Shown in pieces: positions 346 to 7,959 of a stretch of DNA of 17,396 nucleotides. The stretch comes from Arcobacteraceae bacterium (GTDB taxonomy: Bacteria; Campylobacterota; Campylobacteria; Campylobacterales; Arcobacteraceae): the NCBI GenBank assembly GCA_965224485.1, contig CBDCZH010000002.1:1-17396 (forward strand), given 5' to 3'. The position numbers were made by a program, and so were the translations under genes. A model generated the notes under the pieces. That model had not been told where the DNA came from. It was given only the letters and a program-made list of their open reading frames with translations, and searched no databases. Numbering within the stretch: the stretch's first letter is position 1; each line of letters opens with the position of its first letter.

Positions 346-387
346 GGAACGGTAACTGAATTTCATACACTTTTCTACTTATCCCTA

Positions 388-418
388 AGGATTTCATACC
401 CCTGGGGTAGGAAATCCT
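388..418. repeat. REP-like palindrome, copy 1 (intact IS110 target)
   Basis: AGGATTTCATACCCC-T-GGGGTAGGAAATCCT: 15-bp arms with one mismatch. Same core as 7426-7464 and 7921-7959. Confidence 0.9.
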
Positions 419-567
419 GTACTAATGTACACTCCGCTTTTCAATTCAAGCTCCGCCTTGATTTAACACTAAATCTCAAAATTTCTAAGCGATTAAATAA
501 TTATTAAATTAAAGTCTAATATCCTCTTTATTTCTTTAAAAGTAATAAATTAATATATTTATTTAAG

Positions 568-2879: not shown

Positions 2880-3137
2880 ATGCAAACAATGGCAGTACAA
2901 ATTCAAGATGACTATGTTCAAAAATTTATGAGTTATGTTAATAGTCATAGTGAAAACATTACTATAGCAAAAGATAAAAATTTAGAACTTGACCCATACT
3001 TTTATGAAAGACAAAAAGAACTGCAACAAGATATTGAAGATATTGATAATGGTAAAGCTGAAATGTTATCATCAGAACAATTTGATACAGAAATGGATAT
3101 TTTTTTTAAAGACTTAAAATCAAATGCACATATCTAA
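2880..3137 (+). CDS. Type II antitoxin (partner of RelE/ParE toxin)
   Basis: 85 aa, acidic, AGGAG RBS, overlaps the toxin start by 14 nt. Confidence 0.75.
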   Translation: MQTMAVQIQDDYVQKFMSYVNSHSENITIAKDKNLELDPYFYERQKELQQDIEDIDNGKAEMLSSEQFDTEMDIFFKDLKSNAHI

Positions 3138-3408
3138 ATTAAGAAGATATAAAAATCAATTAACAATAATTCTAAAACATATTGCAAAAGATAAAATTTC
3201 AGCAAGTGAAAATTTTTATTTTAATCTCAATAAAGCAATAGAAGAAATACCAAATTTTCCCTTTAAATATAGAAAATCAATCTATTTTGATAATGAGGAT
3301 ATAAGAGATATGACCTTTAAAGGCTATACCGTAACTTATAGAATAAATATCAAAAAAGATTTAATTGAAGTAATTAGAATATTTAATAAAAATAAACCGA
3401 CAAGGTAA
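3124..3408 (+). CDS. RelE/ParE-family type II toxin
   Basis: 94 aa, basic. Pattern I...IAKD....A..F...L...I..I..FP...R, IRDMTFKGYTVTYRI, IEVIRIF is typical of the RelE/ParE fold. Confidence 0.88.
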   Translation: MHISKLRRYKNQLTIILKHIAKDKISASENFYFNLNKAIEEIPNFPFKYRKSIYFDNEDIRDMTFKGYTVTYRINIKKDLIEVIRIFNKNKPTR

Positions 3409-4081: not shown

Positions 4082-4374
4082 TTAAAAATTACACCCCAGT
4101 TGCCACGTTAAAAACAACTTAAATTAAGCAATATTTTACATATTATCTTCCTTCCATGATACTCTTTTTTCGTAAAGAGTATTGTCGAAGTTTTTATTAT
4201 TTTTAAATAGTGAATGGGCTATTAAAAATTACAAATTACAACCCAGTTGCCACGTTAAAAACAACTTAAATTATGCAATATTTTTCATATTATCTTCCTT
4301 CCATCCTACTCTTTTTTCGTAAAGAGTATTGTCGAAGTTTTTATTATTTTTAAATAGTGAATGGGCGATTAAAA
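4082..4374. repeat. Imperfect tandem duplication (~145-bp unit) of the IS110 right end and transposase 3' end
   Basis: CCCAGTTGCCACGTTAAAAACAACTTAAATTA...GTGAATGGGC occurs at ~4095-4219 and ~4242-4366 with a few substitutions. Confidence 0.9.
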
Positions 4375-5246
4375 TCATTTTCTTCATAACGGCTATTTGT
4401 GCTACTGTTGAATGTTTTCCATTTTCTTTTAAACGATCATAAAAAGCTTTCATATATGGATTACTTCTTATGGCACAAAGTACTGGCATAAAGAATATGC
4501 TTCTATATATCGCATTTCCTTTTTTCGATATTCTTGACTTTCTATTTATTGAACTACCTGATGTTTGTTCAATTGCATCTAATCCTATTAATGCAGTTAT
4601 CTCTTGTCTATTTGCATCTTTATAGGTAATAAAAAGATGTATCAAAGCTATTGATGATAAATCTCCAATACCTTTAATTGATTTCATATTTTCAAATTTA
4701 CACAATAAAATGTCATCTGTTTTTATTAAGTCTTTCATTTGAAGAATCATCTCTTTTTCTTCTTCTTTTAAGTGTTTTACTGTTTTATTAAGTTTTTTAA
4801 TTATTAAGGCATTTCCCTCTTTTACTTCTAAGGATTCTAAATGGTTTGAGAATCCAGTTCGTTGTTTTTGTAGAAGTTTATAATAGCTTAACATCTCACC
4901 TAAACTCTCTTGTCTTTCGTCAATTACAGGGACTTTGATATCTTCACTATTTGCCATAACTCTAAAGTTATATAACATCTTTGCATCTATAATATCACTC
5001 TTACTTCTATTATCTAATGCTTTTGCAAAGTTTGAACTTTGTCTTGGATTAACAATATAAGAAAAGTATGTTTTTTTGAGCACAGAAATGTTTTAGTAAA
5101 GAAGAATAAGGACCTGTTGGCTCGTAAATAAATACCAAATTCTTATACTCTTTTTTGTAATATTTTTTGAGTTTAAAATACAAAGAGTTGATAGACTTTT
5201 TAGTATTTAAAATACTAATATTCTCATTTTTAATTTCAATATAAAC

Positions 5247-6773
5247 CAGCAATTCTAACTCTAAATTTAACCCACCATTCCTTTAATCCAAATACGGAGC
5301 CATCTCTATATTTTCATCTGTTTGTCTGGATATTAGTATAAATTCTAATAATTTATTAAAGCTTTTAAATCTAAACATTGTAGTTAACATATGCATCCCT
5401 ACGAAGAACTCTTCTCTTGTACCTATTTCTTCTCTTACTTCTATATAAAGATCATCAGTTAATTCTTGTACTGTATGAAATAAAAAGGCTAATATATTTA
5501 AAGAGCATAAAGTTTTAGATAAATTCTCTTTTCCATGCCCGAAGTTATGGTCTAAATGATAACCTTTAGTTTTTAAAGTATTATTATTTTCATTTTCTAT
5601 TTTCCATCTTGTTTTACCTGCTAAGGTAATATCTTCAACATTATTTAAATTAATTTTAATATCACTTACAAAGCTATTACGATAGAGTTTTCTTCCACTT
5701 GCATTAGTAATAATAATCTCACACCAGTTTACTTCTTCTGGAGGGTTATTTGTATCACCATTTGGATTTTTAATAGCTAATTTATTTATATAATTATAAA
5801 TAAAAGTTTGTTTTTTACCATTAATCATTTTATCTATTTGCTTACTATCACAAGTACCTAATTCTTTAATCATATCTATTTGTTCATAAAGATATTTATG
5901 AGATGTTTTTTTAGCTACAAATATATATGAATGATTTTTTTCTAATACTTTTTTTATCATAGGTTCTCTTGAATATAAGTCATCACCTAGAATAATTACT
6001 TTATCTGAACTTGGAGCTTTAAATGTATCTAACCATCTTTTAGAAGCATTTACTTCACAATCTTGTTTATCATTTCCATCTTCATTTGATATAAATTCTT
6101 GCATTAAAGGTAATACTTTTTTTATATTAGGATTAACGATTGTAGGTGTTATTACACTATGGAAATAATGAACTTCATGTGTTTCACTATTTGTTTTACT
6201 TTGGCAACATTTACAAGATATATTTTTACTTGAATGGTAATGTGTACCATCTAATGCTACTAGTAAATATTTATCCATAAAAGTAAATTTCTTTTTTAAT
6301 AAACCTATTTTATCTAAGTGAGATATTACAGTATTGTAAACATTTTTAAATACCTCTGGTTTTATTTTATCCATTATATTTCGTATATGATTATCTGATG
6401 GTATATCTGTAATACCAAATATAGTTTTAGCATTACTGCTTCCTTTATTAGTATCCATTTTTCTCTGAAAACTTAACCAAGATTTATTCTGAAAATAAAA
6501 AATACTAAATGTTGATAAGATAATATCTTTAAAAGAATATTTAATATCTTCTCTTTGTCTTCTAGTATCATTAATATTATCTATATTTGAAGTAAAACTA
6601 TCTATTAAAAAATTAAAAATATTTGTTTGTCTATAACTCATATCAACCCCTTGTTTATAGGGTTATTATAGCTAATTTATGGTTTTAGAATGGTTAAAAA
6701 TAGGACTTTTTAAGGTGTTTTTAGGATTTCTTTTTATGAAATTTATTTTTATATTTCAGAGTTAGAATTGCTG
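5247..6773 (-). mobile_element. Nested DDE insertion sequence (ISNCY/IS4-like), 1527 bp
   Basis: Perfect 16-bp TIRs CAGCAATTCTAACTCT (5247-5262 / 6758-6773). 9-bp TSD AATATAAAC (5238-5246 / 6774-6782). The empty site is visible in copy 1 at 212-220. Confidence 0.96.
5283..6641 (-). CDS. DDE transposase (ISNCY-type), 452 aa
   Basis: ALDGT, GDDLYS and RWKIENE give the DDE triad. CKCC and KQDCE motifs present. Fills the TIR-bounded element. Family label is recalled, not searched. Confidence 0.9.
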   Translation of the reverse strand: MSYRQTNIFNFLIDSFTSNIDNINDTRRQREDIKYSFKDIILSTFSIFYFQNKSWLSFQRKMDTNKGSSNAKTIFGITDIPSDNHIRNIMDKIKPEVFKNVYNTVISHLDKIGLLKKKFTFMDKYLLVALDGTHYHSSKNISCKCCQSKTNSETHEVHYFHSVITPTIVNPNIKKVLPLMQEFISNEDGNDKQDCEVNASKRWLDTFKAPSSDKVIILGDDLYSREPMIKKVLEKNHSYIFVAKKTSHKYLYEQIDMIKELGTCDSKQIDKMINGKKQTFIYNYINKLAIKNPNGDTNNPPEEVNWCEIIITNASGRKLYRNSFVSDIKINLNNVEDITLAGKTRWKIENENNNTLKTKGYHLDHNFGHGKENLSKTLCSLNILAFLFHTVQELTDDLYIEVREEIGTREEFFVGMHMLTTMFRFKSFNKLLEFILISRQTDENIEMAPYLD

Positions 6774-6863
6774 AATATAAACTTGTAATGTTGACTTAGA
6801 TACATCAATTCCGATAAACTTATACATGAAGGCCTCCTAATTAATTTTAGAAGAGCTTGTTAG

Positions 6864-6883
6864 GACAGAGCTTATGCTCTGTC
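6864..6883. terminator. Hairpin between bridge RNA and recombinase RBS (possible 3' boundary)
   Basis: GACAGAGC-TTAT-GCTCTGTC perfect 8-bp stem, also at 302-321. No clear U-tract, so the role is uncertain. Confidence 0.4.
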
Positions 6884-6899
6884 TGATTTTAGAAACTAA

Positions 6900-7074
6900 A
6901 TATAACTTCACCTCGCAAAATGCAATCTGGAAATATATCCGACTTAGTTGCCACTCAAGTTTTTAATTTAGCTATTAAACTGGGGTACAGACTCATTCAA
7001 TAATTATTAAATGGTCTCAGGGGTACATCAATATACTAAAATTGACTCTTCTTTTTATTATAGCTTATTGCTAT
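6900..7074 (-). ncRNA. IS110 bridge RNA (predicted)
   Basis: Downstream of -10 TATAAT (7085-7080): a 5' hairpin (7060-7074), then a target loop with UACCCCU (7025-7019) and UACCCCAG (6987-6980) around an inner stem, then a donor loop with GUGGCAACU (6954-6946) identical to the right end plus core. Ends approximate. Confidence 0.85.
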
Positions 7075-7087
7075 ATTCCATTATACA

Positions 7088-7106
7088 AGGGGTAGGAAAT
7101 CCACTT
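7088..7106. repeat. Half REP-like palindrome at the IS110 left junction
   Basis: AGGGGTAGGAAATCCACTT is one arm of the repeat at 7426-7464, cut at the palindrome centre. Confidence 0.9.
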
Positions 7107-7167
7107 ATCTGATTTACACTTCTAAGAATGAATCTCCACTAGTTAAGAAAAACGTGGAGCGTAAGTC

Positions 7168-7367
7168 CTGCCTTTGTTGAAACAGAGTGTTTGTTTTCTT
7201 CTTTCGGAACAGACCGAATCTGTTTGAACGTTAAAAAATGTGCTCTTTAGCACATTTTAGAGAGTTATGCAGGGTAGAAAGAAGAAAACAATAAGCGAAG
7301 GTAGCTTTGCTTTCAACAATACGGCAGTTGCTTTCTTTTTTCTTCTTTTCAAGAAAAGAAGAAAAAA
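7168..7367. other. Highly structured non-coding element with nested inverted repeats
   Basis: CTGCC/GGCAG, TTGTTGAAA/TTTCAACAA, TTGTTTTCTTCTTTC/GAAAGAAGAAAACAA (15 bp), AACAGA/TCTGTT, AAAATGTGCT/AGCACATTTT, then a 15-bp-arm hairpin at 7336-7367. Confidence 0.75.
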
Positions 7368-7425: not shown

Positions 7426-7464
7426 AAAGTGGACTTCCTACCCCTGGGGTAGGAAATCCACTTT
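7426..7464. repeat. REP-like palindrome, copy 2
   Basis: AAAGTGGACTTCCTACCCC-T-GGGGTAGGAAATCCACTTT, 19-bp arms with one mismatch. Flanks (~7383-7500) are similar to ~7876-7995. Confidence 0.92.
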
Positions 7465-7920: not shown

Positions 7921-7959
7921 AAAGTGGATTTTCTACCCCTGGGGCAGTAAATCCACTTT
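7921..7959. repeat. REP-like palindrome, copy 3 (degenerate)
   Basis: AAAGTGGATTTTCTACCCC-T-GGGGCAGTAAATCCACTTT, followed by the shared TACGATGAAAGATT. Confidence 0.9.

Follow-up and report, generated by a model that had tools for sequence, protein, structure and literature searches.

Insertion sequences of the IS110 group have a long left and a short right non-coding end, and bridge RNAs have been predicted in 85.7% of the IS110 elements in ISfinder (PMC11208160). In IS621 the RNA consists of a 5′ stem-loop and, after it, a pair of stem-loops with internal loops, and the core takes part in each of the pairings (PMC11208160). Whether such an RNA can be decoded guide by guide from a single integrated copy is the question raised by an IS110-group element in a draft genome of an Arcobacteraceae bacterium (phylum Campylobacterota, assembly GCA_965224485.1; 2.79 Mb, 27% GC, 24 contigs, 91.8% complete). 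The stretch analysed, hereafter the window, comprises 17,396 nucleotides, the first 17.4 kb of contig C2 (CBDCZH010000002.1). An earlier note made from the letters alone, hereafter the original prediction, had proposed that the minus strand at one end of the element carries a bridge RNA programmed against a palindromic genomic repeat. Our analysis indicates that positions 7087-6849 (minus strand) very probably encode the bridge RNA of this element, with the left and right target guides (LTG, RTG) and left and right donor guides (LDG, RDG) laid out as in IS621, a CT core and a palindromic repeat as target. We prefer this reading because the guides covary with the flanks, the stems covary among relatives and the recombinase is homologous to solved bridge recombinases.

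The closest relatives of the window among named records are marine metagenome-assembled genomes (MAGs) of Arcobacter, Arcobacteraceae and Sulfurimonas. Recombinase relatives at E <= 1e-40 occur in 30 of the 184 family genomes, and a profile built from 11 left ends recovered homologous left ends at 27 of 29 loci. We tabulated 35 homologous left ends, 33 of them with both flanks and 32 distinct, and based the structure alignment on 29 left-end sequences. Within the genus, where five genomes were searched, there are a copy 98% identical to that of the window (L016) and a 74% relative (L017/L043); two further IS110 types of the same genome (types B and C) carry a homologous left end. Four sequencing runs were also compared with the window; run X1 contains 85% of the words of the stretch, and the metatranscriptome run X6 covers positions 6808-7158 only.

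Guide sequences and their covariation with flanks and ends

Every string named in the original prediction is present on the minus strand at the place it gave (Table 1). The element's left flank reads AAGTGGATTTCCTACCC-CT, and the LTG UACCCCU (7025-7019) equals, as claimed, the real left flank plus core (CCTACCC-CT, 7096-7088). The RTG UACCCCAG (6987-6980) is likewise the predicted reverse complement of CT-GGGGTA, but it fits the flank directly adjacent to the element (CT-GGGTTGT) at only 6/7 positions; the fit is 7/7 to the outer flank, the perfect CT-GGGGTGT found after a duplicated 133 bp of the right end (4227-4095), and to free sites in the genome. The LDG GUGGCAACU (6954-6946) agrees with the right end plus core (4253-4245) at 9/9 positions, as had been noticed, the element's right end and core reading TTAACGTGGCAA-CT.

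For the RDG the relatives lead to a different assignment. The proposed guide UGCA is present at 6924-6921, but the corresponding columns read GCA, GAA or GTA in relatives whatever the sequence of the left end, and this candidate was rejected. The columns homologous to UGCGAG (6917-6912) do follow the start of the left end, the forms UGCGAG, UAUGAG, UAUAAG and CACGAG accompanying left ends CGTA, CATA, TATA and CGTA, respectively. UGCGAG pairs at 6/6 positions with CT-CGTA via one G:T wobble, and with the window's CT-TGTA via two. The left end of the window starts TGTATAAT (7087-7080), whereas its first base is C (CGTATAAT) in L016, L019-L021, all MAG relatives of the clade and contigs of all four runs; because these close relatives and run contigs have C, the window's T is best taken as a variant or an error, and the donor, given in the original prediction as GTGGCAA-CT-TGTAT, is better written GTGGCAA-CT-CGTAT.

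The LDG also changes together with the right end (variants GGUAA, GGCGA and UAGCA), so that GUGGUAACU, GUGGCGAC and GUAGCAAC accompany right ends GTGGTAACT, GTGGCGACT and GTAGCAACT, respectively; where a right end could be located (31 rows), the last LDG letter is A in 21, against T in the core. Among the relatives there are 20 distinct RTG and 24 distinct LTG 7-mers. At the five non-core positions, an RTG matches its own right target half (RT) at a mean of 4.06/5, compared with 1.30/5 for 966 non-cognate pairs (at least four matches in 72% vs 4.8%); for the LTG and its own left target half (LT) the means are 3.25/5 and 1.41/5 (968 non-cognate pairs; at least four matches in 53% vs 3.7%). Individual copies illustrate the pattern: the close relative L027, with the guides GGCGUCU/UCUGUAG, occupies a site that is unrelated and not palindromic (GGCAT-CT-ACAGA), L042 has an ACCUCU guide and is located after ACCT-CT, and type B copies of the window's genome have the LTG UGAAAAACU or CUAUAACU after TGAGAAA-CT or ATATAA-CT. 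Read from the alignments, the putative target guides match the flanks including the core and covary with them, and the putative donor guides match the ends of the element including the core.

Such matches could in principle be fortuitous similarities in an AT-rich non-coding end, where runs of C raise the odds of both target 7-mers. When the 190-nt RNA region was shuffled 20,000 times with its dinucleotides preserved, the LTG 7-mer recurred in 1.8% and the RTG 7-mer in 1.2%, while the LDG 9-mer recurred in 0.01% and LTG and RTG jointly in none (0/20,000). The same positions, moreover, match the flanks in relatives whose sequences differ. We therefore regard chance as a negligible prospect, refuted by the shuffles and by the comparison of cognate with non-cognate pairs.

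Structure of the RNA

As judged from the 29-sequence alignment, the region has the two-stem-loop layout of a bridge RNA, a target-binding loop (TBL) whose columns vary and a donor-binding loop (DBL) in which GAGTGG.AAC is nearly invariant, preceded by a 5′ stem-loop that is weakly kept. The guides are located in the internal loops of the drawn structure. In this drawing 87.4% of the cells are paired, compared with 74.7% in shuffles (0/500 reach the observed value) and 33-45% with slid partners, and compensatory changes, with both sides altered, occur at 36 of the 55 pairs. The stems that the original prediction drew for the first loop were confirmed, namely the outer TTTAGT..TATTGA (7040-7028)/TTAATA-GCTAAA (6978-6967) and the inner AGAC-CATTTAAT/ATTGAATG-(A)-GTCT (7017-6989).

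Two further helices lie outside the guide loops. A long-range helix (83% of cells paired; 3/7 pairs compensatory, 4/7 hardly varying) closes the whole molecule, is present in the minimum free energy (MFE) fold and links the 5′ end of the RNA to a conserved block just ahead of the ribosome-binding site. A conserved 3′ hairpin follows the two loops. The 5′ hairpin has 60% of its cells paired and 2/6 compensatory pairs, and its bases T26, A27, A30 and T31 are invariant.

Folding of a single sequence proved uninformative when taken alone: the fold of 6880-7095 has z = -2.24, and the LDG is partly buried in it. RNAalifold recovered the distal stems and the DBL stems from 11 sequences, but not the outer stem of the TBL. 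Searches of Rfam 15 returned no match at the gathering score over the whole window, and noise alone at E values up to 10 over 6600-7300.

The strand GCTAAA (6972-6967) has two partners, 7040-7035 in the TBL and 6900-6895 beyond the DBL; both track it with 5-6 of 6 pairs in most of the 29 sequences, the 3′ partner being slightly better kept. The two drawn folds are 2 kcal/mol apart (-40.3 and -38.3 kcal/mol), and the MFE fold of 7052-6849 (-54.9 kcal/mol) uses the 3′ partner. The shared strand could be a switch or a trace of a common origin of the two loops. We consider it rather unlikely that the bridge RNA of this clade is two-state, with GCUAAA closing either the TBL basal stem or an extended DBL basal stem; if it were, the fold could alternate between target and donor binding, or couple RNA folding to translation of the recombinase.

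Table 1 Coordinates of the element, its candidate bridge RNA and related sites within the window
Feature	Positions	Strand	Basis or remark
IS110-group insertion sequence	4247..7087	-	Ends set by comparison with relatives and other copies; Pfam PF01548, PF02371
Left target half (LT) CCTACCC, in the arm AAGTGGATTTCCTACCC of a REP-like (repetitive extragenic palindromic) repeat	7090..7096	-	Same sense as LTG over 5 nt plus core
Left CT core copy	7088..7089	-	Sequence, copy comparison
TATAAT -10 box, left-end positions 3-8	7080..7085	-	Sequence
Putative 5′ hairpin TATAGC-AATAA-GCTATA	7059..7075	-	Overlaps second conserved TAnnAT at 7062-7057
Long-range helix, 5′ strand AGAAGAG	7046..7052	-	Pairs with 6855-6849; closes whole RNA
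TBL basal stem, 5′ strand TTTAGT-A-TATTGA	7028..7040	-	Sequence, alignment
Putative LTG UACCCCU	7019..7025	-	Equals LT plus core, 7/7; LTG-LT covariation
TBL distal stem-loop	6989..7017	-	94% of cells paired; 11/12 pairs compensatory
Putative RTG UACCCCAG	6980..6987	-	Reverse complement of CT-GGGGTA; RTG-RT covariation
TBL basal stem, 3′ strand TTAATA-GCTAAA	6967..6978	-	GCTAAA (6972-6967) alternatively pairs with 6900-6895
DBL basal stem, 5′ strand AACTT	6957..6961	-	Pairs with 6908-6904; 93.7% of cells paired
Putative LDG GUGGCAACU	6946..6954	-	9/9 identical to right end plus core, 4253-4245
DBL distal stem-loop	6926..6942	-	99.3% of cells paired; 4/5 pairs compensatory
Putative RDG UGCGAG	6912..6917	-	Homologous columns covary with left-end start
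DBL basal stem, 3′ strands AAGTT and possible extension TTTAGT	6895..6908	-	Alignment
Conserved 3′ hairpin GACAGAGC-AUAA-GCUCUGUC	6864..6883	-	95% of cells paired; 8/8 pairs compensatory
Long-range helix, 3′ strand CTCTTCT	6849..6855	-	Inside conserved CTAAC(G/A)A(A/G)CTCTT block
Shine-Dalgarno AGGAGG (6838-6833), ATG (6827-6825), first 18 recombinase codons	6774..6838	-	Sequence
IS4-like DDE element inside recombinase gene	5247..6773	-	9-bp target duplication, Pfam, seawater contig
Rest of recombinase gene, one extra T near 5062 shifting the frame	4271..5246	-	Sequence
Right end = left donor half (LD) GTGGCAA	4247..4253	-	Sequence, relatives
Right CT core and adjacent right target half GGGTTGT	4238..4246	-	Core 4246-4245
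Duplicate of the element's right end, 133 bp, 96%	4095..4227	-	Then CT-GGGGTGTAATTT
Second element copy at contig edge	1..345	-	Recombinase start uninterrupted; left end and both loops missing
Free REP-like site GGATTTCATACCCCTGGGGTAGGAAATCC	387..420	+	Sequence
Free target, full palindrome GTGGACTTCCTACCCC-T-GGGGTAGGAAATCCAC	7429..7462	+	Sequence
Free REP-like site GTGGATTTTCTACCCCTGGGGCAGTAAATCCAC	7924..7957	+	Sequence

The element and its recombinase

The element measures 2841 bp here and about 1305 bp after subtraction of an IS4-like insertion and its duplicated target site. Its non-coding left end (7087-6828) is 260 nt and its right end (4270-4247) 24 nt long, which is the long-left, short-right arrangement that PMC11208160 gives for the IS110 group. 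The short 2-3-bp subterminal inverted repeats described in the same paper were not seen at the ends, which were inspected by eye only. The system had been called compact, which the sizes do not bear out: intact relatives measure 1258-1318 bp, their recombinase about 340 aa and the RNA about 155-205 nt. These values are close to those of IS621. The 133-bp duplicate sits directly downstream of the real right end, and each of the two is then followed by CT-GGG(T/G)TGTAATTT; it could be a tandem duplication or a product of half-site recombination.

The recombinase gene of the window is interrupted after codon 18 by a 1527-bp IS4-like element, flanked by the duplication GTTTATATT at 6782-6774 and 5246-5238, and is further disrupted by the extra T, which neither the element's second copy nor one of the run X1 contigs contains. 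A contig from seawater DNA joins 5237 to 6774, the form without the IS4-like insertion. The fragments match PF02371 (E 2.1e-14) and PF01548 (E 6.9e-5 and 1.5e-5, both below the Pfam cut-off because the gene is split), and the motifs GIDVS, EPTG, SDIIDA and SGSSINRKSRISKKG are found across the pieces. The relative L024 has an uninterrupted open reading frame (ORF) of 339 aa, which shares 78% identity with the C-terminal fragment of the window and has both Pfam domains above cut-off. This protein matches the ISCro4 transposase (9t56; E 3.3e-26, 95.6 bits, residues 3-326) and the IS621 transposase (8wt6; E 1.1e-23, residues 3-322). By these matches the recombinase is assigned to the IS110 group, with a DEDD (RuvC-like) N-terminal and a C-terminal Tnp domain. 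With its gene split by the IS4-like element and frameshifted by the extra T, the window copy cannot make its own recombinase and is at best non-autonomous; a second copy might serve it in trans.

The IS4-like element itself has a 452-aa ORF with weak matches to PF01609/PF13808 and terminal inverted repeats CAGCAATTCTAACTCT. Its contig depth in run X1 is 20-60, compared with about 3 for the IS110 parts, which suggests that it is present in many copies.

Target repeat and insertion orientation

The target repeat has the form AAAGTGGATTTCCTACCCC-T-GGGGT and continues with GTAATTT or with the complete mirror arm AGGAAATCCAC. Free TACCCCTGGGG sites number five in the genome, three of them in the window, against about 0.03 expected from base composition in a hand calculation. 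The predicted palindromic repeat TACCC-CT-GGGGT was found, but it is low-copy, with about 10 sites in 2.79 Mb. In the clade, the left flank ACCC-CT and the right flank CT-GGGGTGT recur at L016, L041, L024, L025, L042, the solo-end remnants and L028/L068.

The near-identity of the two target guides that had been pointed out is accounted for by the position of the core on the palindrome's dyad: with the last base of the CT core at the central T, the half-sites are reverse complements of each other. On the opposite strand of the target, the core would read CA. Occupied left flanks carry a GTGGA-type arm in 8 of 10 cases in the clade (seven GTGGA; CTGGA in L041), and CT-GGGGTG is found at all six fully intact right junctions (the window's duplicated right end, L041, L024, L025, L042 and L028/L068), while the window's adjacent right junction reads CT-GGGTTG. 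From the constancy of the left arm and the right junction it follows that the orientation is constant relative to the asymmetric form of the repeat. The observed flanks are consistent with the inference of the original prediction that the palindrome centre (T/A) would fix the insertion orientation.

A second family of repeats, about 120 nt long and bearing the hairpin GTGCT...AGCAC, has a member in the window at about 7150-7300 (minus strand). These repeats serve as insertion sites for the genome's type B IS110 (right flank CT-CACTAAAATGTGC); the unoccupied variant in the window reads AACT-CT-CTAAAATGTGC, and similar repeats flank the relatives L024 and L026. Differing IS110 types have the right flank CT-GTCCC in common (G000 C10:470709, type B; C10:4942, type C; C4:7110; L052; L057; L058). 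The RTG matches this flank in the L052/L057/L058 type and does not in two copies of the window's genome. It may be a common hotspot or reflect secondary rearrangements.

Promoter, transcription and a model of insertion

No complete sigma-70 promoter was found in the integrated left end. In the published junction model, the promoter is rebuilt where the right end meets the left end (PMC11208160). A circle junction of the present element would place TTGTTT (4264-4259, right end) 16 nt before TATAAT (7085-7080). A second -10-like TATAAT (7062-7057, minus strand) lies inside the putative 5′ hairpin, and its TAnnAT is invariant in the 29 sequences; a transcript from it could start at the AGAAGAG strand. 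In a metatranscriptome of marine sediment, one contig of 260 nt (depth 2.4) spans 6832-7091 with 98% identity and is identical to the L016 variant, a weak hint of transcription, since DNA carry-over is possible and the contig ends are not RNA ends.

In the mechanism that we infer, the element would, by analogy with IS621, be excised as a circle, in which the -35-like TTGTTT and TATAAT would drive the RNA. The RNA would fold into two stem-loops, each with an internal loop. UACCCCU in the first loop, in the sense of the left target plus core, would pair with the bottom strand; in the second, GUGGCAACU would stand in the sense of the right end plus core, and UGCGAG would pair with the core and the left-end start CGTA. 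Bound to the RNA, the DEDD/Ser recombinase would join the circle junction GTGGCAA-CT-CGTAT with the target TACCC-CT-GGGGT at the centre of the REP-like palindrome. Strand exchange would take place at the CT core, and the orientation of the insert would be defined solely by the central T:A pair and by bases outside the palindrome.

Weighing of alternative explanations

Several observations weigh against reading the region as a bridge RNA of an active element. The fit of guides to flanks is imperfect: three or fewer matches are seen in 9 of 32 cognate RTG pairs and 15 of 32 LTG pairs, partly owing to the alignment register (loop length), the adjacent right flank at 4246-4238 has one mismatch to the RTG, and the type B copy C10a and the type C copy C10b adjoin CT-GTCCC, which their RTGs do not match. 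On the side of the RNA, the MFE fold of the single sequence pairs part of the LDG, relatives conserve the 5′ hairpin poorly, and Rfam 15 gave neither a match at the gathering score nor anything relevant at E up to 10. The low depth and possible DNA origin of the RNA-library contig, whose ends cannot be read as RNA ends, and the broken recombinase gene, which makes activity of the locus doubtful, belong to the same account.

As a rival reading, the region would be only a structured 5′ leader of the recombinase mRNA that controls translation or stability, with the matches to flanks and ends arising from a site preference set by the protein. The RNA does reach the Shine-Dalgarno sequence, no terminator-like site follows it, and the AGAAGAG/CTCTTCT helix together with the conserved block CTAACGAACTCTT, 10-25 nt before the Shine-Dalgarno sequence, makes translational coupling possible. 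A leader of this kind would leave unexplained why the loop sequences change with the host flanks (20 RTG and 24 LTG variants, with cognate far above non-cognate matches) and why the right end of the element itself is copied in the second loop, and homologous recombinases have been solved in complex with bridge RNA (PMC11208158). We hold it to be very improbable. That the region is a true bridge RNA gene but a dead relic, with RNA and element inactive in this genome, has on the other hand a probability only slightly below even. The recombinase gene is split by the 1527-bp IS4-like element and the extra T, the only further copy seen has neither left end nor binding loops, a search of the 24 contigs found no full copy besides this one, and solo left-end and right-end remnants are numerous in the genus. 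Decay of this kind is at odds with an RNA region that differs by about 2% from the genus copy L016 and has all stems and guides intact, with the run X1 contig without the extra T, and with the uninterrupted frame of the second copy (88 aa to the contig edge), which could act in trans; in an assembly of this completeness, further copies may be collapsed or missing. The bridge-RNA reading itself, in the IS621 layout that had been predicted, is supported by guide-flank covariation, stem covariation and recombinase homology to solved bridge recombinases.

Comparison with known systems

Bridge systems that target REPs, IS621 and ISPpu10, have already been published, and the known mechanism is left unchanged by the present element. 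It resembles IS621 of E. coli (Durrant et al. 2024, PMC11208160; 8wt6-8wt9) in belonging to the IS110 group with the RNA in the long left end upstream of the recombinase, in the order of a 5′ stem-loop, a variable target loop and a conserved donor loop, and in the sense of the guides, with LTG and LDG in that of the top strand and RTG and RDG complementary to it. Shared as well are a CT core in every pairing, a -10 box directly after the core and a REP target. The recombinases are homologous over their full length (E 1.1e-23). Unlike in IS621, the core here falls on the palindrome dyad, so that LTG and RTG are nearly identical in sequence, and the host is an Arcobacteraceae genome of 27% GC. 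The RTG of the present clade pairs over the core plus 5 nt, whereas that of wild-type IS621 pairs over the core plus 2 (4 bp), and the LTG matches the core plus 5 nt instead of the core plus 7 (PMC11208160). The extra 3′ hairpin, the long-range closing helix and the strand common to both basal stems of the present RNA are possible further differences from IS621.

ISPpu10 of Pseudomonas putida (bioRxiv 10.64898/2026.03.19.712850) likewise belongs to IS110, has a bridge RNA and targets REPs, nearly all of them intergenic; host and repeat differ, and 206 REP sites are reported there, compared with about 10 here. Its authors propose the target's own stem-loop as a second recognition layer (bioRxiv 10.64898/2026.03.19.712850). 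The ISCro4 transposase (PDB 9t56) is the best-scoring solved homologue of the L024 recombinase and has GIDVSK, SK(S/T)D..DA.ML and SG(T/S)S.NR.SR.SK.G in common with it, but the two are distant (95.6 bits, E 3.3e-26). The IS1111 group, or seekRNA elements, have the same DEDD recombinase family and RNA-guided logic; in contrast to the 260-nt left and about 25-nt right end found here, their RNA lies in a long right end and their subterminal inverted repeats are long (PMC11208160).

We found no paper that treats IS110 together with Arcobacter. The readable parts of the supplements of PMC11208160 contain neither "Arcobacter" nor "Aliarcobacter" nor "Sulfurimonas", and one unrelated Campylobacterota protein; they do not amount to proof of absence. 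The clade represents a marine lineage of 27% GC that is unnamed in the readable supplements of the founding paper. At the present locus all four bridge-RNA guides can be read, and free targets at a distance of a few hundred bases allow them to be checked; the clade offers a covariation set of at least 20 distinct right guides and 24 left guides within one bacterial family. The position of the core on the palindrome dyad provides a natural test of how far the core alone sets the orientation of insertion. Practical value lies in an AT-rich family of orthologues for the engineering of bridge recombinases and in the annotation of repeats and insertion sequences in Arcobacteraceae.

Second copy, remnants and neighbouring genes

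Homology of the second copy to the element begins at the equivalent of 6907, just 3′ of the RDG, and its reading frame, which contains neither the IS4-like element nor the extra T, stays open for 88 aa as far as the contig edge. Further full copies were not found in the draft assembly. The resulting split arrangement, one copy with RNA and ends and another with the start of the recombinase but no RNA, might work in trans.

Solo remnants of left ends (40-80 bp, in every case preceded by ..ACCC-CT or ..CCCT) and of right ends occur often in the genus, as at L019, L020, L021, G000 C19:129344, G000 C10:138266-138420 and L028/L068. They hint at frequent abortive or partial recombination at these sites. 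At L028/L068, a pair of IS110 right ends point towards one another across 35 bp (GTGGCAACT-GGGGTGTAATTTCGATATTTGAAGATAAAGGGGAC-AGTTGCCAC); two element types have inserted convergently into neighbouring sites here.

Outside the element, the window encodes a ParE-family toxin ORF (3124-3408, plus strand; PF05016, E 1.5e-8) that overlaps an upstream ORF of 85 aa without a Pfam match (2880-3408 for both), and the two probably form a toxin-antitoxin pair.

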